In this document: one piece after another, positions 1 through 64,000 of the stretch | How positions within the stretch are numbered: the stretch's first letter is position 1 | Layout of the letters: each line of letters begins with the position of its first letter | Assembly: GCA_937899715.1 (NCBI GenBank) | Contig: CALCNX010000090.1 | Coordinates: 1-64,000 of the forward strand | Direction of reading: 5' to 3' | DNA length: 64,000 bases | Source of the DNA: an uncultured bacterium | GTDB lineage: Bacteria > Bacteroidota > Ignavibacteria > Kapaibacteriales > UBA4661 | Made by a program: the position numbers and the translations under genes | Notes under the pieces: model-generated | Told to the model about the DNA's origin: nothing | The model's input: only the letters and a program-made list of their open reading frames with translations | The model's database searches: none

Positions 1-49
1 ATCTACACAGGCGAAGACACTCTTTCCCTACACGACGCTCTTCCGATCT
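1..49. other. Illumina TruSeq-HT adapter remnant (…ATCTACAC + i5 index AGGCGAAG + ACACTCTTTCCCTACACGACGCTCTTCCGATCT); non-biological
   Basis: Exact match to the 3' portion of the TruSeq universal adapter with an 8-nt index inserted at the i5 position; genuine ORF reading begins at nt 50. Confidence 0.9.
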
Positions 50-1009
50 GGGCTGCTCTGGAACGAAGCAAACAAGCGGGACGCACTGGTGTATCTGGAC
101 GCATTTTTAGAGAAGTTCTTTTCAGGCGTGTTACAGGGCGATGTTGACGCTGTACCGGTTCCGCGAACCGTCTATGCGCTGGCAAAAGAGTACAAAGACA
201 CGCGGCTTGGGCAGTCAGGCGCAATCGTTTTGGAGAAATTCAAAAACAGCCTACGGTTCCATTTCCCGAAAGATGTGCCGTTCTCGGCAGCAGAAATCCT
301 GTCGGCGCTCCGAGAAGCCCAATCACGGGAGCTTGCACAGTCCACACGCAAGCGCTACATGACTACGATGAAGGCGATGTTCACCTATGCGGTCGAGTGT
401 GAGTACATCAAGAAAAATCCCGTTGCAACGATTGGTATTCCCAAAGAGCCGAAAAAAATTGAACACCTCGTGTTGAAGCCAGACGAGGTTAAGCGCCTGA
501 TCGGATTCTTTGAAAACATTACAGATCGCTATCACGACGAACACGCCCTGATTTTCGAGTGGCTGTGGCGAACTGGTATGCGTGTTGGCGAGGTGATTAA
601 AATGAAGTGGAGCGATTACGACGAAGAGCGCGGTATCCTGAAAATAATTGGCAAAGGTAGTATCTATCGTGAGTTTCCCGTCTCGCTCTTCCCAGAGGCG
701 GTTGCAATACTGGAAAAGATGCGCAAGCACTCATTCCCAGACGGCAAAATATGGCGGTGGAAAAACACACAGAATATACAAACCAATTTCCGCAAGGCAG
801 CATTGGCGCTCAAGTTCAATCCGAAATACGTAGTCCACACGTTGCGAGGCAGTGCGGGATGGTACTACGAAAACGTGTTAGGTTTGGATTTTACGCTCGT
901 AGCGGAATTGCTCGGACATTCGCCCAGCATGAACATCCAACGCTACCGAAAAAAACGCACCGGGGAAGACCTCAAAGATGCCCTAAAAAAGGCGACCGAC
1001 GAGCGCTGA
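50..1009 (+). CDS. Tyrosine site-specific recombinase/integrase, 5'-truncated by the contig/adapter boundary
   Basis: Frame open from nt 50 to TGA at 1007-1009; catalytic-domain motifs R…HTLRGSAGWYY…LLGHS…NIQRY (R-H-R-Y tyrosine recombinase signature); antisense shadow ORFs ignored. Confidence 0.75.
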   Translation, partial: GLLWNEANKRDALVYLDAFLEKFFSGVLQGDVDAVPVPRTVYALAKEYKDTRLGQSGAIVLEKFKNSLRFHFPKDVPFSAAEILSALREAQSRELAQSTRKRYMTTMKAMFTYAVECEYIKKNPVATIGIPKEPKKIEHLVLKPDEVKRLIGFFENITDRYHDEHALIFEWLWRTGMRVGEVIKMKWSDYDEERGILKIIGKGSIYREFPVSLFPEAVAILEKMRKHSFPDGKIWRWKNTQNIQTNFRKAALALKFNPKYVVHTLRGSAGWYYENVLGLDFTLVAELLGHSPSMNIQRYRKKRTGEDLKDALKKATDER

Positions 1010-1103
1010 ACGAGCGTTTTCAAAAACAAACCCAAAAACAGTAGGTATTATGCGGGTTCGCAGCAAAAAGTTCGGGTGTCTTCTTCTCCGCAACGCTAAA
1101 AGA

Positions 1104-1140
1104 AAAACCCGCACCATTACTGGCTTGCGGGTTTTTTGTT
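1104..1140 (+). terminator. Rho-independent terminator after integrase (AACCCGCA…TGCGGGTT stem + TTTTTT)
   Basis: 8-bp perfect stem followed by T6 tract, 95 nt downstream of integrase stop. Confidence 0.6.
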
Positions 1141-1389
1141 GCTTTTTTTCAAAGATATTTCTTAGATTCATCGCTGGCATTTGGTAAAAATAGAAATTTT
1201 CGATAAATATGCTGCCGAGTGCATTTTCTGATAGTGGTAGGGAATACAATCCTGTCCCTCGAAGCCCCTACTCTAGCCAATCAAAGACCGAATTTGCAAG
1301 ATATTGCTCCTGAACAAAAAGAACAAAAGCCTATAATCCCATTTTTTGCTGCCTGTGCAAGCGGCAGCGCCTCAACCAATTGATACGTC

Positions 1390-3255
1390 ATGGAAACCTT
1401 TTTTGCTTCGTACTGGTGGATTCTTCTTCTGGTTGTCATTCTGGCACTGTACAAATACGTTCTGCGTTTTTTATTTGGTGTGGTCATTGTGCCTGAGGAC
1501 AAAATCGGGTTAGTAACAAAAAAATTCGTGCTTTTCGGTGAACACAAAGAATTACCCGATGGGCGCATTATTGCTATACAGGGCGAAGCGGGCTTTCAAG
1601 CAAAAGCACTTGCTCCGGGCTTATACTTTTGGAAATGGTTTTGGCAATATGATGTGACGATGGAAAAATTCACCGTGATTCCCGAAGGGCAAATCGGCTT
1701 GGTACTGGCAAAAGATGGCGCTGAAATACCGACAGGCAATATCTTGGGGCAGCGTGTAGAATGTGATAATTTCCAAGATGCGGATAAGTTTTTGACCAAT
1801 GGTGGGGAGCGAGGCAGACAAACAGCTTATATCACCGCCGGTTCATATAGGATTAACTCCCTGCTCTTTCAGGTTTCGATTACTGATATGGTTCGCATCA
1901 AAGAAAGCATGGTCGGCATTATCACTACGTTGGACGGATTGCCCATCGAAGCAGACCAAATAGCAGGCAAACTGATTAGCGGACACAATAATTTTCAGGA
2001 CTTTGACCTTTTTCTCAGGAATGGCGGAAACAGAGGCTTGCAACCACAGGTAATTTTAGCAGGGTCGTATAACCTGAACCCTTGGGCTGTGCAGGTGGAA
2101 GAAATTCCCATGACCGAAATCCCTATTGGGTTTGTTGGCGTTGTTATTTCTTACATCGGTCAAGAAGGAAACGACCTAACAGGTTCTGAATTCAAGCACG
2201 GAAACATCGTTGAAAAAGGGCGTAAAGGGGTTTGGCTTGAGCCAATGGGACCGGGGAAATACCCTGTCAACAAGTACATTATGAAAGTTGAGTTGGTGCC
2301 AACGACTAATCTTGTTCTTAATTGGGCATCTGCACGCAGTGAAGCACATAATTTGGACAAAAATCTTTCGACCATTACCGTCCGCTCCAAAGACGGCTTC
2401 CCATTTAATCTTGATGTTGCACAAATTATTCACGTACCCACGACCGAAGCGCCAAAAGTTATCGCACGGTTCGGTAACATGGTCAATCTTGTCTCTCAAG
2501 TGCTGGAACCGACTATTGGAAACTATTTCCGTAATTCGGCACAAGACAGCGATGTGATTGCGTTTTTAAGCACTCGGAAAGAACGTCAGGAATCAGCAAA
2601 AGCGCATATTAAGAAAGTGTTGGATGAATACAATGTAAACGCTGTGGATACACTTATCGGCGACATTGCACCACCTGAATCCTTGATGAAAACACTGACC
2701 GACCGAAAAATTGCCGAAGAGCAAAAAGTGACCTACGACACACAAAAGCAGGCTCAGGAAACACGGCAAGGGATGGAAAAAGAGACTGCGATTGCCGATA
2801 TGCAGAAAGATATTGTCAAAGCTCAACAAAGCGTTGAAATTGCGGAGCGCACGGCAAGCGCAACGGTAAAAAAAGCAGAAGGCGACGCGACAAGCGTTAA
2901 ACTGGCAGTCAGTGCCGAAGCAGAAGCCACGAAATTACGTGCCCAAGCTGAAGCGGAAGCCATCAAACTAAAAGCCTCCGCACAAGCCGAACAAATCTCG
3001 CTCACGGGCGATGCAGAAGCAGGAAAAATCCTTGCTGTCGGAAAATCTACCGCAGAAGCATACGAGCTTGCTGTCAAAGCGCTGGGCGGCGAAAACTTCA
3101 CTCGCTACAAAATTACCGAAGAACTTTCTAAGGGTCAAATCAAGCTCATTCCAGATATACTCATTGGCGGCAATAATGGCGGTGGGAATGCGATTGACGG
3201 ACTTTTGGGATTGAAGCTCATGGAGATGATTGACCCAAAGAAAAATGAAGAATAA
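1390..3255 (+). CDS. SPFH/band-7 (flotillin-like) membrane protein
   Basis: N-terminal hydrophobic segment; C-terminal Ala/Glu-rich coiled coil (AEAEATKLRAQAEAEAIKLKASAQAEQ) typical of flotillin/YqiK. Confidence 0.6.
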   Translation: METFFASYWWILLLVVILALYKYVLRFLFGVVIVPEDKIGLVTKKFVLFGEHKELPDGRIIAIQGEAGFQAKALAPGLYFWKWFWQYDVTMEKFTVIPEGQIGLVLAKDGAEIPTGNILGQRVECDNFQDADKFLTNGGERGRQTAYITAGSYRINSLLFQVSITDMVRIKESMVGIITTLDGLPIEADQIAGKLISGHNNFQDFDLFLRNGGNRGLQPQVILAGSYNLNPWAVQVEEIPMTEIPIGFVGVVISYIGQEGNDLTGSEFKHGNIVEKGRKGVWLEPMGPGKYPVNKYIMKVELVPTTNLVLNWASARSEAHNLDKNLSTITVRSKDGFPFNLDVAQIIHVPTTEAPKVIARFGNMVNLVSQVLEPTIGNYFRNSAQDSDVIAFLSTRKERQESAKAHIKKVLDEYNVNAVDTLIGDIAPPESLMKTLTDRKIAEEQKVTYDTQKQAQETRQGMEKETAIADMQKDIVKAQQSVEIAERTASATVKKAEGDATSVKLAVSAEAEATKLRAQAEAEAIKLKASAQAEQISLTGDAEAGKILAVGKSTAEAYELAVKALGGENFTRYKITEELSKGQIKLIPDILIGGNNGGGNAIDGLLGLKLMEMIDPKKNEE

Positions 3256-3366
3256 GTGCTTTATTGCGAATATTTATTCTGAGATGACCAACAATTGACG
3301 TGCAATGCTCTTCAACATCTTGGTTGGTCGGACTTCAAATTTTTATCATATTTTTTCTACTTGTCT

Positions 3367-5040
3367 ATGCGATTGCTCAAAGCCTCTATAATTCTCATAC
3401 TCTGCGTGGTTTGCAACCTGGCAGCGCAAGAACCATTCCGCGACCCGAAAACAAAAAAAGTAGGCATAAAAGCCGGCGAACAAACTATTGTTAAACCTGC
3501 ATACGATGACCTTATTGCCTTTCCCGAACATGGTGCAGCCGCACGAAATGGAACTCTCTGGGGCTTCGTTACATACGACGACAAAGAAACAATTCCCATT
3601 TCATTCGACAAGATTGAATTGCAAAAAGGCGGTTTGGTAAAAGCCTCTAAAGCTGGTAAAATAGGCTTTTTCAACACAGATGGTCAAGCACTTGTGCCCG
3701 TGGAATTTGATGCTATTGATATGAAAGTCTTTGATGGAGCAGCCAAGCCGACCCATTTTCTTGTCCGAAAAGATAAAAAAGTTGGATTCTACACCATAAG
3801 CGGGAAATGTATTATTCAGCCGCTTTACGACGATGTAAAGCTCATGTCCAACAACCTTTTTCAAGCGAAAATCAATGAAAAGTTCGCTTATCTTTCACGC
3901 GACGGTGCTGAAATTGTACCACCGAACTATGACAAAATTACCTTTCTCAAAAACAAGACGATGAAAGTTGAACTTGCCGGAAAGCAAGGTTTACTCAATG
4001 CTGAGGGAAAAGAAATTACGCCGACGATATATGACAATATTGATTTTTTGGACAACAACCGCATTCAAGCTGCACTCAACGGCAAAGTAATGATTCTCAG
4101 CGGTGACGGGAAGCCCGTCATACGAACCGCAGAGGAATCTGCCGGATTTTATATCATGTTGGACAAAAATCTCCGCTACGGTTATATTGATGCTGAAGGT
4201 ATTCCAGTAGTGCCCTCGGTATATGGCAAAGTAAAGGAATATTCTGAAGGCGTAGCAGCCGTTGAGAAGGACGGAAAATGGGGTTTTATTGACCCAAATG
4301 GCGAAGAAGTCATACCGTTTCAATTTGACGATGCACAGTCATTCAGCGAGGGAATAGCGGCATTTGAACAAGAAGAAAAATGGGGTTTTATCGACAAAAA
4401 AGGCTCCATTGTAGTAAAGCCACAATTTCTGAAAGCGAAACTCTTTGTTAATGGTCTCGCGCCCGTACAAACAAAGGATGAGAAATGGGGCTTTATTGAC
4501 AAAAAAGGCAAAATGGTCATTAAGTCTCAGTTTGCAGAGGCAGAAATTTTCCGCGAAGGTCTTGCCGCAGTCAGCGTAAACGGAAAGTATGGCTATATTG
4601 ATACCAAAGGACGGATGGTCGTTCAACCCAAGTATGGCTGGACAATGTTTTTCTCTGAGGGTCTTGCAGAGGTGCGTTTGGGCGGAAAATCAGGCTATAT
4701 TGACAAAACGGCTGCTCTCACAATTCCTCTCTTTTACGAGAATGCACGAGAATTTTCCGAGGCGCTTTGCAGTGTCCAATTTGTGGATAAAAAATGGGGC
4801 TATATCAATACTAAAAATGAAGTTGTGATTCCAGCCACATTCGACTGGGCAAAAAGTTTCCACAATGATGCAGCACCGGTGCGGGTTGGAGAAAAATGGG
4901 GCTATATCAACAAGTCAGGTCAACTTATCGTTCAGCCCCAATTTGATGATGCGTTCGAGTTTACCGGTGCCTTAGCACGTGTCAAACTTGGTGGTCGTGA
5001 GTTTTATGTCAATAAACAGGGAAAAACTATCGGGCAGTAA
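3367..5040 (+). CDS. Secreted WG-repeat (KWGFID/KYGYID repeat) protein
   Basis: Signal peptide MRLLKASIILILCVVCNLAAQ; about 9 tandem ~35-aa repeats each containing (K/E)(W/Y)G(F/Y)ID; internal ATG at 3367 preferred over ORF start 3295. Confidence 0.6.
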   Translation: MRLLKASIILILCVVCNLAAQEPFRDPKTKKVGIKAGEQTIVKPAYDDLIAFPEHGAAARNGTLWGFVTYDDKETIPISFDKIELQKGGLVKASKAGKIGFFNTDGQALVPVEFDAIDMKVFDGAAKPTHFLVRKDKKVGFYTISGKCIIQPLYDDVKLMSNNLFQAKINEKFAYLSRDGAEIVPPNYDKITFLKNKTMKVELAGKQGLLNAEGKEITPTIYDNIDFLDNNRIQAALNGKVMILSGDGKPVIRTAEESAGFYIMLDKNLRYGYIDAEGIPVVPSVYGKVKEYSEGVAAVEKDGKWGFIDPNGEEVIPFQFDDAQSFSEGIAAFEQEEKWGFIDKKGSIVVKPQFLKAKLFVNGLAPVQTKDEKWGFIDKKGKMVIKSQFAEAEIFREGLAAVSVNGKYGYIDTKGRMVVQPKYGWTMFFSEGLAEVRLGGKSGYIDKTAALTIPLFYENAREFSEALCSVQFVDKKWGYINTKNEVVIPATFDWAKSFHNDAAPVRVGEKWGYINKSGQLIVQPQFDDAFEFTGALARVKLGGREFYVNKQGKTIGQ

Positions 5041-5062
5041 AAATACTTCAACAAATACCAAT

Positions 5063-6304
5063 TTAGAATACTACCGTCAACTCAACGGGCTTATTATCAC
5101 GCAAAACCCTCACCGGCACTGAATCTCCGGCTTTTAGCTTAGACAGTGCTTCCATGTATGCCTGAATATCCGCAATATCTGCCTGCCCGATTTTCACGAC
5201 CACATCACCGTCTTGCAAACCGGCTTTAGCACCCGCTCTGCCGGCAGTTACGGCATCAACTTTCAAACCTTTGCCGGAATAACTGTAAGACGGCATAACA
5301 CCAAGAGAAACTTTGTAACTATGCCCTGTCTGCTGCTTGACGCGAGTTTGTGCAAATGCCAGTTTTGGTGTGGCTTGAAGAGAATCCATGATGTTCACGA
5401 TATACCGCAAGACCTTTGCTTCACCACCAATGTTAAGACGCTCAATATCATCCGAAGGCTTGTGGTAATCGCTGTGTACACCGGTAAAAAAGAAAAGCAC
5501 AGGAATTTTTTTGAGATAAAACGACGTGTGGTCGGAAGGTCCCACACCTGACGAATCAAGCGCCAAAGCGAACTGATTACTAAACGCTCGTTCAGCTATG
5601 CTCTTCACAAGCGGCTCAAATGTCGGACTCGTACCGACACCGCCAACGACGAGTTCTTTTTTTGCCTCATCGAAGCGCCCAATCATGTCCAGATTCACCA
5701 TGCAATGTACGTTTTCAAGCGGTAATGTGGGATGTTCAGTAAAATGTTTTGAACCGAGCAACCCCAATTCCTCGCCGGAGAAGCAGAGAAAAAGGAAGTT
5801 ATATGGCTCTTTCGCGGTGTTTGTGGCATAGAGCCGCGCCAGTTCCAATACACCCGCCACACCGGAAGCATTGTCGTCTGCGCCGTTGTGGATTTTGCCT
5901 TTGGGTGCAGGGTCGAGTGAGGAGCCGTCATAACCAAGCCCCAAGTGGTCGTAATGAGCACCAATGACGATAGTTCGCACCGCACCATTATCCAGAAAAG
6001 CGGCAACATTCATCGCCAAGCGATTGCTGTCCGGCAACACATCATTTTTCTTGATAAGCGGAAACGTCTGGAAAAACGTGCCGTCATCGCCTTTTGGCAA
6101 AAGGCGCAAGGAACGGAAGTAGTTTGCAAGATACTCCGCAGCACGTTTTTCGTCGGCGGTACTCGTGCCGCGCCCATGTAAGGAATCACTTGCAAGAAAG
6201 CCAATATGCCTACGGAGCAAGGTTGTATCAATGGTTTGAGCGTTAAGAGAACCAACAAGAAGTATAGTTCCCACTACTAGGTTTCTAAAGAAGAGATGCT
6301 TCAT
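5063..6304 (-). CDS. M28-family metallo-aminopeptidase with C-terminal PDZ domain
   Basis: HYDHLG and DDNASGVAGVLELAR zinc-ligand motifs; C-terminal PDZ-like GLKVDAV…GDVVVKIG; signal peptide from ATG 6304. Confidence 0.7.
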   Translation of the reverse strand: MKHLFFRNLVVGTILLVGSLNAQTIDTTLLRRHIGFLASDSLHGRGTSTADEKRAAEYLANYFRSLRLLPKGDDGTFFQTFPLIKKNDVLPDSNRLAMNVAAFLDNGAVRTIVIGAHYDHLGLGYDGSSLDPAPKGKIHNGADDNASGVAGVLELARLYATNTAKEPYNFLFLCFSGEELGLLGSKHFTEHPTLPLENVHCMVNLDMIGRFDEAKKELVVGGVGTSPTFEPLVKSIAERAFSNQFALALDSSGVGPSDHTSFYLKKIPVLFFFTGVHSDYHKPSDDIERLNIGGEAKVLRYIVNIMDSLQATPKLAFAQTRVKQQTGHSYKVSLGVMPSYSYSGKGLKVDAVTAGRAGAKAGLQDGDVVVKIGQADIADIQAYMEALSKLKAGDSVPVRVLRDNKPVELTVVF

Positions 6305-6327
6305 ATTGTTTTGAAGATAGAAAATAA

Positions 6328-7440
6328 TTAGTCCACCCAATCGGCTATAAACAAGTTTGTGTCTCGTGTGCCGCCGTTACTGCGGTTTGAGGAAAATATA
6401 AGTTTCTTGCCATCCGGCGAAAACATCGGAAACGCATTAAAAATACTTTCGCCCGTAATCTGCTCCAGCCCTGTGCCGTCTGTATTTATCATGTACAACT
6501 GAAAATCGTAGCCGCGCGTCGAATGATGATTCGAGGAGAAAATTATTTTTTTGCCCGATGGATGAAAGAACGGTGCCCAGTTTGCCTTGCCAAGATGCGT
6601 GATTTGGCGCAGATTGGAACCATCCACATTACAGATGTAAATTTCCATATTTGTCGGTGCCACAAGCCCCATGCTCAACAACTCCTTGTATTCCGCAACA
6701 TCCTCCGGCGTAGTGGGGCGCGATGCACGGAACACAAGCTGCTTACCATCGGGTGAGAAAAATGCGCCGCCGTCATATCCCAAGCCGCTTGTAACTTGCT
6801 TTTGATTTGTGCCGTCCACATTCATTGTCCAAAGTTCTAAGTCGCCGGAACGGTCGGAGGTGAAAACAATTTTATCCCCTTTGGGAGAAATTGTTGCCTC
6901 TGCATCGTAGCCGGACGTGGTGGTAAGCGGCTTCATATTACTCCCGTCAAGCGCTGCCACATAAATATCGTAGGAGCGATGAACAGCCCAGAGATATTTT
7001 TTAAGATACTCCGGCTTGGTCACAACGGGCATTGGCGTACAAACGCTGTCTGTGCGGTGCGTGGAGCCAAAAAGAACGTGCTTTCCGTCGGGCATGATGT
7101 ATGAACACGTTGTGCGTCCACGCCCTGTGCTGATGCGAGCAGGATGGTACGCAGAGTCGCGCATTTTGAGCGAGTCTGCCAACGGCAGGTAAAAAATCTG
7201 GTCGCACTGCAAGCCCCACTTGGGGTTATTCGACTGAAATGAAATTGCTTGACCGTTTACCCCGAAATAGGCTTCGGCGTTATCGCCACCAAAGGTAATT
7301 TGGCGAAGGTTTGCGAGGTGGCGGGATTCTTTGACTGCCGATTTTGCTGCTTGAGAAGATTGAACGGGTGCTTGAGCAGTCGCAATAAAAGGTATTTCGC
7401 AGAATGCGATTGCCAAAACAAGAAGTGCAGAAAGGCGCAT
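6328..7440 (-). CDS. Periplasmic TolB-like beta-propeller (PD40/WD40-like repeat) protein
   Basis: Signal peptide; repeated FSPDGK / SPKGDKIVFTSDRSG / FSPDGKKLIFSSNRS PD40 motifs. Confidence 0.65.
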   Translation of the reverse strand: MRLSALLVLAIAFCEIPFIATAQAPVQSSQAAKSAVKESRHLANLRQITFGGDNAEAYFGVNGQAISFQSNNPKWGLQCDQIFYLPLADSLKMRDSAYHPARISTGRGRTTCSYIMPDGKHVLFGSTHRTDSVCTPMPVVTKPEYLKKYLWAVHRSYDIYVAALDGSNMKPLTTTSGYDAEATISPKGDKIVFTSDRSGDLELWTMNVDGTNQKQVTSGLGYDGGAFFSPDGKQLVFRASRPTTPEDVAEYKELLSMGLVAPTNMEIYICNVDGSNLRQITHLGKANWAPFFHPSGKKIIFSSNHHSTRGYDFQLYMINTDGTGLEQITGESIFNAFPMFSPDGKKLIFSSNRSNGGTRDTNLFIADWVD

Positions 7441-7505
7441 GTATGCTTACAATGGATAATAAAAACTGACGATTTAGTTTCGATATAAATTAGCTCTGAT
7501 GCCGC

Positions 7506-7838
7506 TTAATTCCAATGCAAATCGGCGGCATGCTTGCGAATATGCAACTTTACTGCCGCACAAGCAAGCAGTTCTCTGAGTTCCAACGCTTCGTGTTTAT
7601 GCAGCACAAACGTCGCACCCGTGTTGCCGACGGCAATATGAATTTTCCGGCGGTGCAATGAATGAGCAAAGGATTTTTCCCACGCATCAAGGTCGAGTCG
7701 GTCTATCATTTCCCAAAATGTGCGGAAACCTTCTGGACTGAAGCGTAATTCAACAGTTCCAAATTCAACATGAAGTGAATCGCAATGATCACAGCGAAAA
7801 ACCTGCCCCTTGCGGGTTTGGTGGAGAATGATTGCCAT
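7506..7838 (-). CDS. Hypothetical Cys/His-containing small protein (110 aa)
   Basis: ORF only; CDHCDSLH motif; co-directional between a heme-oxygenase-like gene and the TolB-like gene. Confidence 0.35.
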   Translation of the reverse strand: MAIILHQTRKGQVFRCDHCDSLHVEFGTVELRFSPEGFRTFWEMIDRLDLDAWEKSFAHSLHRRKIHIAVGNTGATFVLHKHEALELRELLACAAVKLHIRKHAADLHWN

Positions 7839-7955
7839 AATAAATATTGAAAAGGAATGACAAATATACGACTAAAAATTGTAATTACACATAAAATTGC
7901 GCAAGTATGAGGAAACATACTTGCGAGAGGAGCATAAAATTTACTGTTCTTTAAC

Positions 7956-8570
7956 TTACACGGCTTCGGCGACACCAACTTCAAGCATTAGCCAGCGCTC
8001 CAAAGCAGCAAAGGTCTCTTTTGCACTGTGAATAATAACAGCTTCTTTTGCTTCATCATCATTCGCAGCGCTCACAATTGCTTCACAGTACGCCTTCCAC
8101 ATCACGCCCACATTTGCGCCGTAACTGGAAAAATAGGCAGTACCATTTTCGGCGGTAAAGCCAAACATTTTTTGCACTTGGCGAGCTTGAATCTGCCCGC
8201 CCAGCGTTGAGCCTTCCATCACGTACATCACACCGACAGCATCTTCGAGACTGTTCATTGTTGGTAAATCTTCTGTGCGGGGCAGAAGTGTAATGTCTGT
8301 ATCTGTCATCCCCAGCGCCCGTAAGTCTTGCTCCAAAAGCGCAATTTTACGGCGTTCATCGAAAGCGATACCAAGGCGAGACCATTCAAAGCCAGATAAT
8401 ACCTGCTCCAACGGCACGTGAAAGCCGTAGAATTTCTGCAAAAATTCTTTGTATTGCTCAATGCTCATCGTGCCATCCATCATGGCTTTGCCAAACGGAT
8501 TGCCTTCTACGCTGTCATGCTGCGGGCGCGTTTGGCTCTTGAGTTCAGTCAAAATGCGTGGTTTTTCCAT
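7956..8570 (-). CDS. Heme oxygenase-like protein (BphO/HemO family)
   Basis: N-terminal L..LK..T...H...E pattern and YVMEGSTLGGQ motif characteristic of heme oxygenases; ~200 aa. Confidence 0.55.
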   Translation of the reverse strand: MEKPRILTELKSQTRPQHDSVEGNPFGKAMMDGTMSIEQYKEFLQKFYGFHVPLEQVLSGFEWSRLGIAFDERRKIALLEQDLRALGMTDTDITLLPRTEDLPTMNSLEDAVGVMYVMEGSTLGGQIQARQVQKMFGFTAENGTAYFSSYGANVGVMWKAYCEAIVSAANDDEAKEAVIIHSAKETFAALERWLMLEVGVAEAV

Positions 8571-8766
8571 TTTTTTGAATAGAATAGTTGTTAAAACTAA
8601 TTTAGACTAAGTATAAATAACTCTACAAATATAGAGTTCCAATTTCACATTTGCAAGCCTTATTTAGACACAATTCAAATAAGAAAAAAAGCAAGACAGG
8701 AATAGACCTCACAGGCTACTTCTACCTTGCTTTAATAGTTTGTAGTAATAGTTCGTAGTCAGCTTC

Positions 8767-9678
8767 TCACGGCTTCTGCAAGTTATCAGTATCAGCCAAA
8801 ATTTGTTCTATATACGCTAGAGGTCGCTCCCACAGGCGCTTTCCAGTGCGCTCGGTGAAAAAACCAAAATGCCCAAGATGTTTCACACCTGCGTCCTCCG
8901 GAGTTACACGCTCCATTTCAACCGAAATCCCTGTATAAAACTTCAAAATCTCCTGCCCTGTTCGCTCATTCGCAATGGGGTCGTCGCTCACGATATACGC
9001 CCGCCAAGGTAGCAGAACATCGTCGTAAAAATGATTTTTGATTGTTTTGCCAAAGAAATGCCGGAGATAGCGTGGCTGCCTGCACCATGCCGCCCACTCA
9101 CGCGCCACACCTTTGGGTAAATCCTCGCCCTGCCCGATAGCTTTTGCGGGCGCATACCCCAGAAGAAACGTTGTAAGCGGGATAAAAACATACCAAATGA
9201 ACGCCGTAAAATACTTGAACGGCGCAGGAAATATCCGCCAATAGCCAACGGAGGAGGCGATACTAACCACCCCTGCCAGTAAATGATGGTTCGGCATTAG
9301 CCCAATCAACTGCCCGCCCATGCTGTGCGCAATGACAAATTTCTTCAGGTGCGGATAATGCCAATGCAACCAGTTCAGCACACCCGGCATATCACGCTCC
9401 CCCCAATCGCGGGTATATGCCTCAAAACCACGTAACGATGCGGGACGCGAAGCGCCAATACCGCGATAATCGAATACCACCACCACAAATCCCTGCTCCG
9501 CCCAAAACTTCGCAAACTTCAGATAAAATTCTTTTTTGATACCCGTGCCACTATGAATTTGGATAGTCGCTTTTGCCTCGCCTATCGGCTCCATGACGAT
9601 TGCCGCAAGGTCGAAGCCGTCCGTAGCAGGTATGCTCACGGTTTTCGTTGTGAAACGGGGTTGGGTAAGAGTTTCCAT
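8767..9678 (-). CDS. Alpha/beta-fold hydrolase
   Basis: GxSxG nucleophile elbow AHSMGGQ; 303 aa. Confidence 0.6.
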   Translation of the reverse strand: METLTQPRFTTKTVSIPATDGFDLAAIVMEPIGEAKATIQIHSGTGIKKEFYLKFAKFWAEQGFVVVVFDYRGIGASRPASLRGFEAYTRDWGERDMPGVLNWLHWHYPHLKKFVIAHSMGGQLIGLMPNHHLLAGVVSIASSVGYWRIFPAPFKYFTAFIWYVFIPLTTFLLGYAPAKAIGQGEDLPKGVAREWAAWCRQPRYLRHFFGKTIKNHFYDDVLLPWRAYIVSDDPIANERTGQEILKFYTGISVEMERVTPEDAGVKHLGHFGFFTERTGKRLWERPLAYIEQILADTDNLQKP

Positions 9679-9786
9679 AGTTGGAGAGAGTATTTTGGGA
9701 ATAATGATTCTTAGTTTATACTAAACGTTCATTCAAATTGAGTGCTGTAAAACGCCTGTTATTGCGAATTTATGGGCAGTTTTTTG

Positions 9787-9903
9787 ACACGGATTGAAGA
9801 AGATTACACAGATTACACGGATGGTGCAAGGCAGTACAGCCCCGCAATGGTCTTGATTCTTCAGGAAAAATCCGTGTAATCCGCGAAATCTACCTAATCC
9901 GTG
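9787..9903. promoter_or_regulatory. Cluster of 4+ copies of GATTACACGGAT / ATCCGTGTAATC core motifs; candidate TF-binding array
   Basis: 12-bp perfect inverted repeat at 9811-9822 / 9870-9881 plus partial copies at 9788, 9802 and 9895, upstream of the alpha/beta hydrolase gene. Confidence 0.4.
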
Positions 9904-9949
9904 CCAAGAAAAAAGAATTGTTCTTGAAGCTGACCTTTTATTGGCGCTC

Positions 9950-10816
9950 TTATTCAACGGTTCCAAGCAGATGAACAATGCTTTTATCAACACTCGTGAT
10001 ACGAAACGAGGTTTGCGCTTGCTCACCGTCACTGTACTCTAAGGCGACCGTATTCGGCAGCAAAACGGGCTTTTGGAATTGTACATCTATTTTTCGCACC
10101 GACATATTTTTTATGCGCTCAATCACCGACGCAAACATACTCACCGAATACCACCCATGCGCCAGTTTGCCCGGTAGTCCGAATGCCTTCGCCATCACGC
10201 CCGAAATATGAATCGGATTAAAATCTCCCGAAACCTTTGCATAATCCCAGCCGATTCCGGAGGGCATCACGATTTTTCCACCGTCTTTGAAAGCGGAAAA
10301 ATCTGCCCGTGAAGCGCTTTCGTCCTTGGGTGTAGCGCCTTTGTTCGCCGATTTTTCGCCACCTCCCCGCTTGGCAATGTAACCGCTTTTGCAAACAGCC
10401 ACCAGCGTTGAGGCTTGCCGTACTTCTACATGAAATTGTGGAAAAAGTGAGCCGGACGGCTTGCCTTCTATTGTCACAGACGATGTGAGCGATACGGGTT
10501 GCGTGAGTTCAGGCTTTTGCAGCATTTCAAGCGAATTGGTCAAATGTACCATGCCGGGCGCGGCAAGCGGAAATTTTCCATCGCGCATCATCGCAATTTG
10601 CGCCCGTTGCGCAAGCAAGTACAGCCATGTTACGGGAAAGTCGGCGCTATTCTGAAATCCGCAAAATGCTGAATACTCCTTGATGTTATCCGTATCCAGC
10701 GCAACATTCTCGAATGTTTTTTCGAGCGAAAAGGTTTCTTTCACAGGCGGATTGCCGCGCCTGAGCGTGAGCATCACGGGCAGAAGCATCTGCGGAATGG
10801 AATCAAGACGAGCCAT
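9950..10816 (-). CDS. MaoC-like (double hot-dog) dehydratase
   Basis: GDFNPIHISGVMAKAFGLPGKLAHG motif (MaoC D-x-N-x-x-H…G…I-A-H-G); start moved to ATG 10816. Confidence 0.6.
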   Translation of the reverse strand: MARLDSIPQMLLPVMLTLRRGNPPVKETFSLEKTFENVALDTDNIKEYSAFCGFQNSADFPVTWLYLLAQRAQIAMMRDGKFPLAAPGMVHLTNSLEMLQKPELTQPVSLTSSVTIEGKPSGSLFPQFHVEVRQASTLVAVCKSGYIAKRGGGEKSANKGATPKDESASRADFSAFKDGGKIVMPSGIGWDYAKVSGDFNPIHISGVMAKAFGLPGKLAHGWYSVSMFASVIERIKNMSVRKIDVQFQKPVLLPNTVALEYSDGEQAQTSFRITSVDKSIVHLLGTVE

Positions 10817-10877
10817 TATATCCTCCGAACGGTAAATTATACTGAACGATTGGTTAGTAAAGAAGTTACAATAATTA

Positions 10878-12899
10878 TCACTGCACACGTAGAATCTTCG
10901 TTGTCATTACCATTGCTCTGGCTTGCAGCCTTAGCACGTACACGCCTTGTGTTGCGCCCTGAGCTGACCACACAAATTGCTTCGCGCCCGCCTCGTATTC
11001 TCCCGTCCCTAAAACTGCCACTTCCTGCCCCAAAGCATTATAGACACTGAGACGCAATGATGTTCTGTGCGGAAGAAACGCTTCCACAGTAATATCGCCA
11101 AAAGCAGGGTTGGGGAAAGCGTGTATTTTTGCGGTATTCTCGGAACGTAAAGTTTCAATATTCTGTGAAACCGATGTTGAGACCGCGTTTAGCACGTACA
11201 GCCCACCGTTTGTACTGACGAAAACATTTTTGTTATTTGCACCCAAAGAAAAAGTGTTTACTGCCGCATTTGGGAAGGCTGGAAAGCGCTTCCAATCTAC
11301 ATTTACAGGCTTATACTCAATAACGCAGGGTCTCCGAAAATTAGCACGAATAAGCTCACGTTTTCTAGGCGCAAAAAAACTCCACTCTATTTCTATTCCC
11401 TGAACGTAAATAAATCCATACGAATAACGGTCTAATTCTGCAATCTCCACAGCCCAGTCTTGACAATCGTTATTAAAACATGAACCACCTTGAGCATAAA
11501 AAGTATTCTCATGTGCCGATAACTTCGTAATTACAGAAGAAGCCGAACCATTCGCCAGAAAGTACTGTTTCCAAGACTGACCTTTATTTACTGTATTAAC
11601 ATATCTACTTCTCATTGCTGCCCAAAGTGTATCTCCAATGACAGCAATCGTAGATAAACTTCCGATTTCATTAGAACTTACCGAAAGTGGTCGCCAATTT
11701 TGACCAAAATCATCGGAAAACAATACGCTTGCACCAATACTTGCAAATAGCTCTCTGTCACCATATTGACCAGTTATACACGACATAGTTGCACGAGTAT
11801 TACTTACGGGCTTTGTCTGTGTCCATTCTTTCCCATTAGAAGAACGCCAAACAATACTATCGCCCGAATGCGCCCAAAATTGAGTTTGTGTGGCTGCGAG
11901 AAACTCCGGTGACCGACCATTAGGCAGTACAAACTGCTCAAACCGATCCTTCTCCCAACGATGGTAGCCGCCCAGATTACGAAGCGACACAAATACTGCA
12001 CTATCATTGGCAACGACACTATTCACCCAACATAGGGATAATCCCTGATTGAAAGAACGCCAATCACACGTATTCGCGTCGGCAGTAATTACTCCTTGCG
12101 TTGTAGCAATAAAAATTCCTCTGGTGGTATTACTGATAGATTGAACCACGATATTACTTGGTAAATCACAGGTGCGCTGCCAAGAAATTCCTGCATTTAT
12201 GGAACGCCAAAGGGCGTTTGTAGAGATAGCAATAACATGAAACGAGTTTACGAAAGTAAGAGAGCGAGGTACGAAGGGTATTGCTGCATTTTGCCAAGTT
12301 TTCCCACTGTCAGCCGAGCGAAATAAGGTTGAATCTTTTGAACCGCACAGAATAATGGCGCTTGTTGAAGCAATGCACGTTAAAGTAGTCGAAAATAGTA
12401 TAGATTCTGCATTTGTACGATACTGCACTGAAACTGTATTATTTGTCACACGAAGCACACCGCGAGAGTGTAATATCAACGTCCAATTTTCAACGACCGA
12501 GACATCGGAAACCTGTGCAGAAGAAAGGCGATCATCTGCCGTTCTTAGTGAAATAGCTTCTTGCTGCCATATTTCACCACCATTCCACGATCTGAGCAGC
12601 GTAAAAAAACCATCAAAGCCTTTGTCAGGAATAAGCGTATAAAGTATATTATTGCGAGACGTAATTCCCCTCAACGAGTAAGTATCTTGTGGAGTTAAAA
12701 GTTCTTCCCAGCGCCTTCCCGCTACATTACGAAACAAACGCCCATATTCCCCGACAGCAAACAACGTGTCCCCCGAAGCAGTAATATGAGTAATATTCCC
12801 ACCTTCCGGACCAACAAAACGCCACGCGGGAGCGGAATTTTGCGCTAATGCGCCAGACCAAGCAAAAGCGAGAAAAAATAAGACTACAAGGGTTTTCAT
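10878..12899 (-). CDS. Secreted BNR/Asp-box repeat protein with T9SS C-terminal sorting domain
   Basis: Signal peptide; multiple S-x-D-x-G-x-T/S-W repeats (SADSGKTWQ, SINAGISWQ, SDDFGQNWR, NKGQSWK, SSNGKEWT); C-terminus …GVYVLRLQARAMVMTTKILRVQ resembles Por_Secre_tail. Confidence 0.65.
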   Translation of the reverse strand: MKTLVVLFFLAFAWSGALAQNSAPAWRFVGPEGGNITHITASGDTLFAVGEYGRLFRNVAGRRWEELLTPQDTYSLRGITSRNNILYTLIPDKGFDGFFTLLRSWNGGEIWQQEAISLRTADDRLSSAQVSDVSVVENWTLILHSRGVLRVTNNTVSVQYRTNAESILFSTTLTCIASTSAIILCGSKDSTLFRSADSGKTWQNAAIPFVPRSLTFVNSFHVIAISTNALWRSINAGISWQRTCDLPSNIVVQSISNTTRGIFIATTQGVITADANTCDWRSFNQGLSLCWVNSVVANDSAVFVSLRNLGGYHRWEKDRFEQFVLPNGRSPEFLAATQTQFWAHSGDSIVWRSSNGKEWTQTKPVSNTRATMSCITGQYGDRELFASIGASVLFSDDFGQNWRPLSVSSNEIGSLSTIAVIGDTLWAAMRSRYVNTVNKGQSWKQYFLANGSASSVITKLSAHENTFYAQGGSCFNNDCQDWAVEIAELDRYSYGFIYVQGIEIEWSFFAPRKRELIRANFRRPCVIEYKPVNVDWKRFPAFPNAAVNTFSLGANNKNVFVSTNGGLYVLNAVSTSVSQNIETLRSENTAKIHAFPNPAFGDITVEAFLPHRTSLRLSVYNALGQEVAVLGTGEYEAGAKQFVWSAQGATQGVYVLRLQARAMVMTTKILRVQ

Positions 12900-12934
12900 A
12901 GCGAGGAGAAGAAAAATTCTAGACCAAAAACACG

Positions 12935-13450
12935 TTAGGCTACACGACGAACATACAGCGTTTTCAGCACCGAAGCAACAAGTTTTCCATCTTCGCCAAA
13001 AACTTCTACGGTGAATTTCGGTTCGGTCTTCGTGTTTGCGTCTGCCTCAGCCTTGATGTCCGCTATTTGCTCTGCTGTCAGCCGGAACTCGCATGAAACC
13101 GTGCCTTTGCCCGGAGAGCGAAACTGCACTTCAGCCGCTTTGTCCCAGACGATGTAGTCTTTGCCAAGATTATTGATAAGCATAAACACATAAAACGGGT
13201 CGGTCATGGCATAGAGCGAACCACCAAAATGAGTACGGAAGTAATTGCTATTGAACCAGCGAAGGGGCATTTCAACACGTATAAAACGAAAATCTTCGCT
13301 TATTTCTTTTACTCGCACACCTGCTCCAAAATAGGGTCCGTAGATATTGAGCAAAAAGCGGAGCATTTTGGGACCGATTTTGTAATTTCGCAAACCGCCT
13401 TGTTTGTGCTGTTTTGGCTGCTGTTCGGTTTTGATTTCTGTCGTCGTCAT
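12935..13450 (-). CDS. Hot-dog-fold thioesterase-like protein (DUF4442-like)
   Basis: ~170 aa, resemblance to YiiD C-terminal/DUF4442 family; start ATG 13450 avoids overlap with upstream gene. Confidence 0.4.
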   Translation of the reverse strand: MTTTEIKTEQQPKQHKQGGLRNYKIGPKMLRFLLNIYGPYFGAGVRVKEISEDFRFIRVEMPLRWFNSNYFRTHFGGSLYAMTDPFYVFMLINNLGKDYIVWDKAAEVQFRSPGKGTVSCEFRLTAEQIADIKAEADANTKTEPKFTVEVFGEDGKLVASVLKTLYVRRVA

Positions 13451-13514
13451 GGTTTTACTAATTAAACGTTTAGTATGTAAATGCTGTGAATTGTTCATTA
13501 TCATCACCGCGACT

Positions 13515-14186
13515 TTACGCTGCAAATGCATTCAAATCTATCATCAAACCAGTTTTCGCAAGCTGTTCATCGTTGATAACAGAACTATAATGCTTGCGAA
13601 GTTCACCAAAAAAGAGGTCGTAAGGCAAATCATGAAACGCACCATACTCATGCACATAATCCATGAAGACATTTCCGGCATGGTCGAACTGCTGGAAGAT
13701 AGAATCTTCCTTGCCATCAAATTCCAGTGTCGGGACGTTCAACTTCGTACACAGCGCCGCATTGAAGGCAGGTGTAGCCTTTACCCAGCGCCCCGAAAGC
13801 CATAATTCCGTACAGCCATGAAAAACCAGCAAATCGGTTTGCAACACACGCTCTACCTTCTCGGTGGCAATGTGATTGCGCACATTGAAGAACGAAAGTC
13901 GCGTCGGTATGCCCACCACTCGCGCAACAGCAGCCAGCAGAACTGCCTTTTCGACACAATAGCCGTAATTACGCTTTAGCAAATCGCTTGCTTTTAAGCC
14001 CGTCGGGCGCAAGTCAATTTTGTAGGGGTTGTACATAAAATCATCGCGGACGGCGTAATACAAGCGCGCGGCGTTTTCTTCCGGCGAGGCATCACGCTGC
14101 GAATGTTTGTGAGCGTACTCTATAACGGCAGGATTATCACTGTCCAAAAAATACGTTGGGCGAAGATAGGGAGCGGGTTCAAGCAT
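13515..14186 (-). CDS. Transglutaminase-like cysteine protease superfamily protein
   Basis: GYCVEKAVLLAAVARVVGIPTR (Cys nucleophile), downstream HGCTELW His and Asp; 223 aa. Confidence 0.55.
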   Translation of the reverse strand: MLEPAPYLRPTYFLDSDNPAVIEYAHKHSQRDASPEENAARLYYAVRDDFMYNPYKIDLRPTGLKASDLLKRNYGYCVEKAVLLAAVARVVGIPTRLSFFNVRNHIATEKVERVLQTDLLVFHGCTELWLSGRWVKATPAFNAALCTKLNVPTLEFDGKEDSIFQQFDHAGNVFMDYVHEYGAFHDLPYDLFFGELRKHYSSVINDEQLAKTGLMIDLNAFAA

Positions 14187-14245
14187 TAGTGTCGTTGGTA
14201 AAATGGGATAATAAAGTAAACGAGCGTTCAGGATAACAAGCGTTG

Positions 14246-14809
14246 CTACCCCGCAGAAAGACGTGTTTTTGCCCGCTCCAGCATTTCATCTATATAGCGT
14301 TTATCCCCGTAGATGCGCATAAACATGACAGCCCCTTCAAATTCCTGAACGCTCTGCTCGGCAATTCGCCGTGCGGCTTCGGGTTGGTAGGTGGCGGAAA
14401 AAATTTCCGTAAGCGCATCCGTCCAATCACGGAAGAATTCGCGCAAATACGGCGCAAACTCAGGCAGCGTGGAAAGCGTTTCCAGTGCGGTATTTGCCAT
14501 GAGGCAGCCGCCATCGCTTTTGGAGAACATTCGTTGCGCTTTGGCAAGAAATTTTTCTAATTTCTCTTCCGGCGTGAGTTTGTCGGAATACGCAAGTGCA
14601 AAAAGCGTCGTCTTAAAGTGCAGATGAACTCCGTGCAGCACCGCCTTCATCAGCTCTTCTTTGTTCTCGAAGTGATGATAAAACACGCCTTTAGTCAGTC
14701 CACACGCCGCCGCTAAGTCTGCCATCGACGTATTATGGTAGCCCTGCTTGCGAAAGACCCCTGCTGAGGTGAGGATAATTTCATCTTTGCTGAGTTTTTG
14801 AACGGGCAT
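14246..14809 (-). CDS. TetR/AcrR-family transcriptional regulator
   Basis: N-terminal HTH SMADLAAACGLTKGVFYHHFENKEELM. Confidence 0.75.
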   Translation of the reverse strand: MPVQKLSKDEIILTSAGVFRKQGYHNTSMADLAAACGLTKGVFYHHFENKEELMKAVLHGVHLHFKTTLFALAYSDKLTPEEKLEKFLAKAQRMFSKSDGGCLMANTALETLSTLPEFAPYLREFFRDWTDALTEIFSATYQPEAARRIAEQSVQEFEGAVMFMRIYGDKRYIDEMLERAKTRLSAG

Positions 14810-62625: not shown

Positions 62626-64000
62626 ATGCTCATCACCCGCATCAAAGCTGACCATTTCAAGACGTATCATGCACTTGACCTCGACCTGAGTGTGAGCGAG
62701 GGCAAGCCGCTTGTACTTATTGGCGGTGCGAATGGCGGCGGCAAAACCACACTTTTTCAAGCGGTCTGTGGTGCGCTGTACGGGTTAAAAATTAGTACGG
62801 AGCAGCAATTTCACGAACTGTACAATACAGGTGATAATGCCCGCACAGGCTCCGGCACGGTATCGGAGCAAGGTATTCCGCACATCACACTCGAAATTCA
62901 TTTTGTCGGGCATCTTTTGGGCGAAGAGAAACCACACACACTCACACGTCGCTATGAAGTCTCTGCAAGCGGCAAAAAAACTGAGGTAGTGGAGTATGTC
63001 AACGCAAATTTTGGCGGAATGAAATATGCCTTCAACAGCGCCATGCCGCAACGCGAACGCATGAAGCATCAAACCGAGATTGCCAAAATTATCAAAGCAA
63101 ATCTGCCCGAAGAACTCAGCCGCTATTTTCTTTTTGATGCGATGGAATCCGGCGCACTCGTGCGTGAGGACGAGATAAACCGAGTCATTCGAGAAAATAT
63201 CGAAAGCGTGATGGGCTTTGGGAAATATATTCAGCTTGGACGTGTCGCCGAAACACTGGCAAAGCGCACCAACGCTGAACGCCTAAAACTCGAAAATGAG
63301 AAGCACGAATATATGCGGCTTCTTGGCGAAAAACGGCAATTAGAAACTCGTGCCGCCACGCTGGAAACAGAACTTACAGAATCATTTGCTTTTCGCCGCA
63401 AGAACAAGACACTCTACGAAGCACTCCAACACGACCTCGAAGCTGGGTTTGCCATTACGCGGACGATTGAACAAACAAAAAAAGAGATTGAAACAATTCT
63501 GAGCCGTGAACGCGGCTACCACAGCGCCGTACAGGGCTTCGCGCAGAACTTTGAGCAGCACGTTATTTTGCCGAACCTTGCCAGCACGCTTCGTAGCGAA
63601 CTTGCGCTTATTATTTCCACCAAAAACGCCGTTGAAAAGCAAGGTGAGGAAACTATCAAACGCGAAACCGTCGAGCGAATCGTCCGTGAGGCTCTTCGGT
63701 ACTTGCGTGATAAAACGTTGATTGAAGAGAATGGCGCTCAATCGCTGGAAACATCGCTTGTGGAATATCTCGTTTCGGCACGAATGTCGGCGGCGCAAGC
63801 GGACTTCTACGAATTTTTGAACCAGCAGGAAGTTCGCGCTTTGGAGAACCTTTTACACGGCACACACGCGAACCCTTTTGCACAAATTCTTGAACAAAAA
63901 AGCCAGCTTTTGAGCCAATTAGAAAGACTTCCGGGTTTGGAGCGAAGTCTTGAAGAATGGCGTAGTCATGCGGCAAGCAAAGACTTTTCGCTTATTCGTA
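62626..64000 (+). CDS. AAA/SMC-like ATPase (DndD/SbcC/RecF-like P-loop + long coiled coil), 3'-truncated by window end
   Basis: Walker A LVLIGGANGGGKTTLFQAVCGALYG near N-terminus followed by >350 aa of coiled-coil-prone sequence; frame open to end of window. Confidence 0.55.
   Translation, partial: MLITRIKADHFKTYHALDLDLSVSEGKPLVLIGGANGGGKTTLFQAVCGALYGLKISTEQQFHELYNTGDNARTGSGTVSEQGIPHITLEIHFVGHLLGEEKPHTLTRRYEVSASGKKTEVVEYVNANFGGMKYAFNSAMPQRERMKHQTEIAKIIKANLPEELSRYFLFDAMESGALVREDEINRVIRENIESVMGFGKYIQLGRVAETLAKRTNAERLKLENEKHEYMRLLGEKRQLETRAATLETELTESFAFRRKNKTLYEALQHDLEAGFAITRTIEQTKKEIETILSRERGYHSAVQGFAQNFEQHVILPNLASTLRSELALIISTKNAVEKQGEETIKRETVERIVREALRYLRDKTLIEENGAQSLETSLVEYLVSARMSAAQADFYEFLNQQEVRALENLLHGTHANPFAQILEQKSQLLSQLERLPGLERSLEEWRSHAASKDFSLIR

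Follow-up and report, generated by a model that had tools for sequence, protein, structure and literature searches.

Tyrosine integrases of temperate phages that target the 3′ ends of tRNA genes form a familiar class, which includes the P4-, P22-, HP1-, and L5-type enzymes; phiCTX, for example, uses a tRNA-Ser gene in Pseudomonas. Here we describe the beginning of a 64,000-nt stretch of DNA from an uncultured bacterium (this whole stretch is called the window below), where an integrase gene resembles these systems in several respects: it adjoins an att site, its product has the PF00589 domain, and the short core of the att site is the 3′ end of a tRNA gene. In addition, empty and occupied alleles coexist, and, by analogy with the known systems, the tRNA would be rebuilt at the far junction. 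The locus differs from the described systems in that its identity core is only 13–14 bp long, with a degenerate extension resembling a T-arm, and in that its integrase is very distant from those of deposited phages (≤29% identity, INPHARED) and comes from an Ignavibacteria/Kapabacteria-like host. Judged by its sequence, the phage is new and belongs to a little-studied host lineage; its mode of integration is one already known.

The other known phenomenon relevant to this locus is technical. A study by the Moeller lab of MAG and isolate assemblies contaminated with adapters located the reverse complement of AGATCGGAAGAG at the beginning of contigs (BMC Genomics 2024, PMC11536531); adapters concentrate at contig extremities, adapter-bearing reads break contigs, and trimming lets contigs merge (PMC11536531). 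The start of the window shows this contamination in the same orientation, with the reverse complement of AGATCGGAAGAG adjoining that of the “reverse-specific” part CGTCGTGTAGGGAAAGAGTGT; it differs in that the read-through passes the index and enters P5, so that the library index is readable from the assembly. Taking both phenomena together, we consider it highly probable that nt 1–49 are a laboratory oligonucleotide fused to real DNA, namely the prophage-host junction on the integrase side of a temperate tailed phage that sits in a tRNA-Ser(GGA) gene.

Sequencing adapter at the start of the window

The first 49 nt of the window consist, in order, of ATCTACAC, AGGCGAAG, and ACACTCTTTCCCTACACGACGCTCTTCCGATCT, all on the forward strand. 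The first part (1–8) is the last 8 nt of the P5 flow-cell sequence, which is synthetic and non-genomic and matches the D505_F primer exactly; the second (9–16) is the i5 index of TruSeq HT D505, as given in a published primer table (PMC7868615); and the third (17–49) is the TruSeq Read-1 sequencing-primer site, which stops where the insert was ligated. The primer site matches at 33/33 nt with 0 mismatches and is present as a single copy in the window, and it was found in 0/100 dinucleotide-preserving shuffles with up to 3 mismatches allowed. The universal adapter core, AGATCGGAAGAGC, likewise has its sole occurrence in the window at 37–49 (minus strand). A search of the rest of the window for Nextera, TruSeq Read-2, full-length P5, and P7 sequences found none, and no adapter was found at the far window end.

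The D505_F oligonucleotide is listed in the primer table as AATGATACGGCGACCACCGAGATCTACAC-AGGCGAAG-ACACTCTTTCCCTACACGACGCTCTTCCGATCT (PMC7868615), so the window opens with its final 49 nt; a catalogue 8-nt i5 index, D505, separates the P5 tail (...GATCTACAC) from the primer site. Compared to the TruSeq HT or TruSeq-compatible universal (P5) adapter with index D505, the window has the same P5 tail, index, and Read-1 site, but holds only 49 of the 70 nt, the initial 21 nt of P5 (AATGATACGGCGACCACCGAG) being absent. Nucleotides 1–49 are the genome-proximal 49 nt of an Illumina TruSeq-type P5/i5 adapter with index D505, and no feature of the organism. An earlier note on this DNA had read them as the TruSeq universal adapter with an i5 index and had assigned that index to D505; the exact and unique match, the shuffle control, and the primer table (PMC7868615) bear out both statements.

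Comparison with related loci led to the same boundary. Full-length integrase loci were available from an Ignavibacteria MAG (L001), from ENA and Logan contigs (L003–L006), and from a further Logan contig (L007). BLAST matches to the window begin at nt 50 for L001 and L003–L006 and at nt 48 for L007, where the earlier start is a two-base chance extension. In the alignment of L001, L003, and L007, ...GACTACATGGAAAGCAC stands where the window has the adapter; orthologous DNA has no counterpart of nt 1–49, and similarity begins at the ligation junction. The same note had called the window start a non-biological boundary, which agrees with four independent homologous loci that begin to match at nt 48–50 and are unlike nt 1–49.

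It is exceedingly improbable that the adapter-like 49-mer is genuinely genomic, or that the window begins at a chimeric join in the interior of a contig instead of at a contig end. Such a reading would have to accommodate the identity of these nucleotides to a synthetic oligonucleotide, the failure of all 100 shuffles to match 33 nt even at 3 mismatches, the different sequence at this place in orthologous loci, and the position of the adapter exactly at base 1, complete toward the genome and cut outward. Because the adapter lies exactly there, with its genome side whole and its outer side cut, we infer that base 1 is a true contig end. All the window proteins that were looked up are encoded on a single NCBI/ENA contig of 110,967 bp, so the window is one end of that contig. 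At the other side (63400–64000), the window end seems to fall inside a coding sequence, which fits a 64-kb piece cut from the 110,967-bp contig; of the two window ends, the left one alone is a contig end.

The truncated integrase gene

Directly after the adapter, at 50–1009 (forward strand), lies a 5′-truncated tyrosine integrase gene consisting of codons 41–359 and the stop codon, with matches to PF00589 and phrog_1 and 97% identity to a 359-aa relative (P0001). Its frame is open from nt 2 to the stop at 1007–1009, and from nt 50 it encodes 319 aa. The nearest integrase relatives are 359 aa long and 96–97% identical, so 40 N-terminal codons (120 nt) are absent from the gene in the window; as the earlier note had stated, the reading frame is already open at nt 50 and the gene is truncated. 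The coding sequence is incomplete due to the assembly, not to mutation, and the gene is not a pseudogene. The adapter is stop-free and in frame with the integrase (window 2–49), so that gene prediction at the contig edge would add 16 artificial residues (STQAKTLFPYTTLFRS) to the partial protein. Exact look-up of the partial integrase translations in a protein collection, with and without the adapter residues, found nothing.

The PF00589 catalytic domain was matched with 69.2 bits (gathering threshold 27.1) over profile positions 2–169 of 172, that is, as a complete domain, and the 319-aa fragment also contains a SAM-like core-binding domain; the full-length relative matched the PHROG family phrog_1 (“integrase”) at 2.9e-40. 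By inspection against the established motifs, putative catalytic residues of the R-K-H-R-H/W-Y set can be recognised in the translation: Arg in TGMRVGE, Lys in GKGS, both His and Arg in HTLRGS, and a further His together with the Tyr in LGHSPSMNIQRY. Comparison with L001 and L007 revealed 106–110 synonymous and 16–20 non-synonymous codon differences, a ratio that shows the integrase gene to be under strong purifying selection and not in decay.

Some of the annotation would suit a housekeeping recombinase: relatives carry the JGI label “integrase/recombinase XerD”, the top NCBIfam matches are the XerC and XerD models, and the closest solved structure is XerD. The XerC/XerD chromosome-dimer resolvases do share the tyrosine-recombinase fold family with the integrase, and they are its best NCBIfam and PDB sequence matches. 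However, the scores against the XerC and XerD models (TIGR02224/TIGR02225), 74.9 and 73.7 bits, are far under the equivalog cut-offs of 335 and 330; the gene is missing at this locus from the nearly identical L002 and the related L072, two empty-site loci described below; and the integrase always adjoins the tRNA-derived core and is linked to phage genes. We therefore give very little credence to a XerC/XerD-type chromosomal recombinase that would sit outside any mobile element, and treat the gene as a phage integrase.

The attachment junction in tRNA-Ser(GGA)

The DNA to the right of the integrase gene can be divided into a phage-derived part and a host-derived part. Nucleotides 1010–1078 (forward strand) form a P-type arm beside the integrase, which is kept 3′ of the gene in L001, L003–L006, and L007 and is missing from L002 and L072. 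The arm is followed, at 1079–1092 (forward strand), by the 14-bp core TCTTCTTCTCCGCA, which is identical to the 3′ end of the tRNA-Ser(GGA) gene and is the inferred crossover region. From 1093 to 1389 (forward strand) lies the DNA normally found 3′ of tRNA-Ser, with a hairpin and T-run at 1102–1137, and the first host gene past the junction is at 1390–3255 (forward strand) and encodes a 621-aa SPFH/Band_7 protein (Pfam PF01145). Similarity to all the integrase-bearing loci stops at window positions 1091–1093, 82–84 nt past the stop codon, after ...TTCGGGTGTCTTCTTCTCCGCA.

The decisive comparison is with L002, a 3-kb Logan contig, which is 99.86% identical to the window over 2912 nt (window 1066–3977) and encodes exactly the 621-aa product of the gene at 1390–3255. 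To the left of this shared stretch, L002 has an intact tRNA-Ser(GGA) gene in place of the integrase gene, and the 14 nt at the tRNA 3′ end and just beyond (TCTTCTTCTCCGCA) are those of window 1079–1092. The empty site recurs in a more distant relative, L072, where the tRNA, its left flank, and the hairpin with T-run match those of L002; past the tRNA hairpin, its genes are syntenic with window 5063 onward. An unoccupied attB allele is thus present in a close relative, and also in L072. The 14-bp core is common to the occupied sites (the window, L001, and L003–L006) and to both empty sites; L007 has the first 13 bp of the core, followed by CA.

The window contains one copy of the core. The 13 nt to its left (1066–1078) are a degenerate copy of the tRNA T-arm with four mismatches; since these mismatches would break the T-stem, only a crossover inside the core would rebuild the tRNA at the other junction. 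ARAGORN found no tRNA in the window, and the att site emerged only by comparison with L002; together with the single core copy, the ARAGORN result fits a junction that keeps only the 3′ fragment of the tRNA. The hairpin at 1102–1137 has a fold energy of −20.6 kcal/mol and, with its T-run, is likely the tRNA terminator; a terminator scan missed this hairpin, whose loop is over the limit of the scan, and folding shows it. The check proposed in the earlier note, to look for an att site or tRNA, has therefore led to a junction with a tRNA-Ser(GGA) 3′ fragment at 1066–1092, with empty sites in L002 and L072 and phage linkage elsewhere.

We propose that the phage integrated by a tyrosine-recombinase crossover inside the 3′ strand of the tRNA T-stem/acceptor. 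The window holds the integrase-proximal junction, made up of the last 960 nt of the integrase gene, the arm, the core, and host DNA, and of the tRNA only a non-functional 3′ fragment is kept there. The rebuilt tRNA and the putative remainder of the prophage would be found past the contig start, in other contigs.

The occupied sites share the integrase, the arm, and the core, and right of the core the window, L001, and L003–L006 have different host flanks; the same phage family thus occupies the same tRNA in related hosts. The relatives of the host proteins at ≥90% identity come from MAGs named Ignavibacteria or Candidatus Kapabacteria, and L003–L005 share about 87% nucleotide synteny with window 5082–14570.

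Phage genes linked to the integrase in relatives

Linkage of the integrase to phage structural and replication genes was found in relatives only; the window shows the integrase alone. Upstream of the integrase gene, the 37-kb contig of P0001, L001, and L003 all have many small ORFs. Among the upstream ORFs of the relatives are genes for an HTH_17 protein, an AAA_24/Sak4-like annealing protein (5.6e-44), and a DEAD-box helicase: L003 has the Sak4-like gene, and the P0001 contig has the AAA_24, DEAD helicase, and HTH_17 genes. We also observed element-borne pairs of tRNA genes upstream of the integrase gene, namely Phe(GAA) and Met(CAT) in L001 (2782–2991), and Trp(CCA) and Met(CAT) in L003 (3326–3536).

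The organisation of L007 is different. In this locus the integrase gene, the arm, and the core TCTTCTTCTCCGCCA (which supplies the CCA end, ...CCGCCA) are followed directly by phage genes, with no host DNA, and one of these genes encodes a tape-measure protein (>1700 aa, 4e-40). The attP of an unintegrated genome would be expected to look like this, and we would read L007 as such, here from a single linear 28-kb contig.

A second prophage junction with a rebuilt tRNA was recovered from no source; a search of IMG/VR with the integrase gave no relative, and a degenerate tRNA/arm pattern gave one match there (L008). The matches of a tblastn search of the integrase against the deposited phages (INPHARED) were the distant ones mentioned above.

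The element in this genome might be the remnant of a decayed prophage, or an island of non-phage origin, of which only the integrase-att end is left. We regard this as unlikely, even though the integrase is the sole phage gene that the window shows, and even though the region to the right of the tRNA varies (Band_7/WG-repeat genes in the window, a TonB Plug gene in L003, and nothing in L072), which suggests repeated traffic. Against decay are the strong purifying selection indicated for the integrase gene and its catalytic motifs, which are intact by inspection; relatives at 96–97% protein identity have at least 10 kb of phage genes upstream, and the empty-site allele at 99.86% identity suggests a recent gain or loss. 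An integrated temperate tailed phage is the reading we retain.

Origin of the contig break

Given the design of Illumina libraries, the most likely source of the adapter is a very short library fragment whose reads went into the assembly untrimmed. If the insert was shorter than the read length, read 2 would have crossed into the reverse complement of the P5-side adapter, and such a read 2, when reverse-complemented, would present the adapter and then the genome, which is the layout at the contig start. No genomic sequence can succeed the adapter on its outer side, so the contig stops there and nt 50 would be the mere end of one sheared fragment. Instead of random shearing, the join at nt 50 might reflect a recurrent, genuine double-strand DNA end within the integrase gene, for instance a programmed cut, or a defined terminus of a form that is excised or packaged, but to this idea we assign hardly any probability.

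The earlier note had also suggested that the assembly broke inside a mobile or repeated element. A mobile element is indeed there, as indicated by the att junction, the empty sites, and the phage linkage; that the element caused the break is only plausible. There is a somewhat less than even chance that adapter-bearing reads alone made a dead-end path, the prophage having no role in the break. The richness of contig extremities in adapters and the merging of contigs after trimming (PMC11536531) fit such a dead end, as does the unremarkable position of the break, inside the integrase gene and 120 nt from its start. However, independent assemblies also stop in or near the same integrase gene: MBL7990757.1 (P0044), from a 7459-bp contig of a Candidatus Kapabacteria MAG, is a partial integrase of 230 aa at the contig end, with 129 N-terminal residues missing, and the two Logan contigs L005 and L006 end 790–950 nt upstream of the integrase gene. 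Moreover, the empty-site allele at 99.86% identity means that there is real heterogeneity at the locus. The two causes, adapter reads and prophage heterogeneity, are mutually compatible. As an observation in its own right, this end of the prophage repeatedly breaks assemblies, MBL7990757.1 being from an independent public MAG.

Apparent gene turnover at the tRNA-Ser locus

The interval between tRNA-Ser and a conserved M28-peptidase gene differs in content and length among the loci. In the window (1093–5062) it is about 4 kb long and contains the Band_7 and WG-repeat genes; in L003–L005 it is about 2.5 kb long and contains a TonB-dependent Plug gene (11233–13797 in L003); and in L072 it consists of only about 180 bp (5404–5583). 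From this comparison of loci, the tRNA-Ser site appears to be a general hot spot of gene turnover and not a target of the phage alone. To the right of the core, L001 (11164–11210) and L003 (11233–11275) are alike and unlike the window, with AAACGGCTT...AAGCCGTTTTT hairpins; an element that once occupied the site may have left this shared DNA behind. Two small genes, encoding 204 and 139 aa, come next in L001.

We also scanned metagenomes with the degenerate pattern GTTCGRRTSTCTTCTTCTCCGC. The scan was swamped by ordinary tRNA-Ser genes, giving at least 80 tRNA-Ser loci, with L072 as the sole useful yield; the phage-specific TTCGGGTGTCTTCTTCTCCGC would be the better choice for such a scan. Phage-type or rebuilt-tRNA junctions were sought among these loci (at least 80), and none was found among the matches listed, all of which were host-type. 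In each of four unrelated metagenome contigs (L012, L036, L037, and L056), the tRNA-Ser 3′-end pattern occurs twice with a spacing of about 217 nt, as tandem tRNA-Ser genes or a duplicated att site might produce.

Implications

For the record itself, the 49 nt ought to be trimmed. If they are left in place, the integrase frame gains the 16 adapter residues (STQAKTLFPYTTLFRS), which can seed spurious protein entries as well as false similarity among unrelated contigs; the adapter also reveals the library index, D505.

For the biology of the host lineage, the phage may represent a temperate tailed-phage lineage of Ignavibacteria/Kapabacteria that is as yet undescribed and that is now entering and leaving tRNA-Ser in natural populations, a reading that is more likely than a recurrent DNA end at nt 50. 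For a phage of a poorly studied lineage, the comparison pins down the att core in tRNA-Ser(GGA) precisely and supplies the empty sites to match, and the core tells genome finishers where the missing prophage and the tRNA belong.
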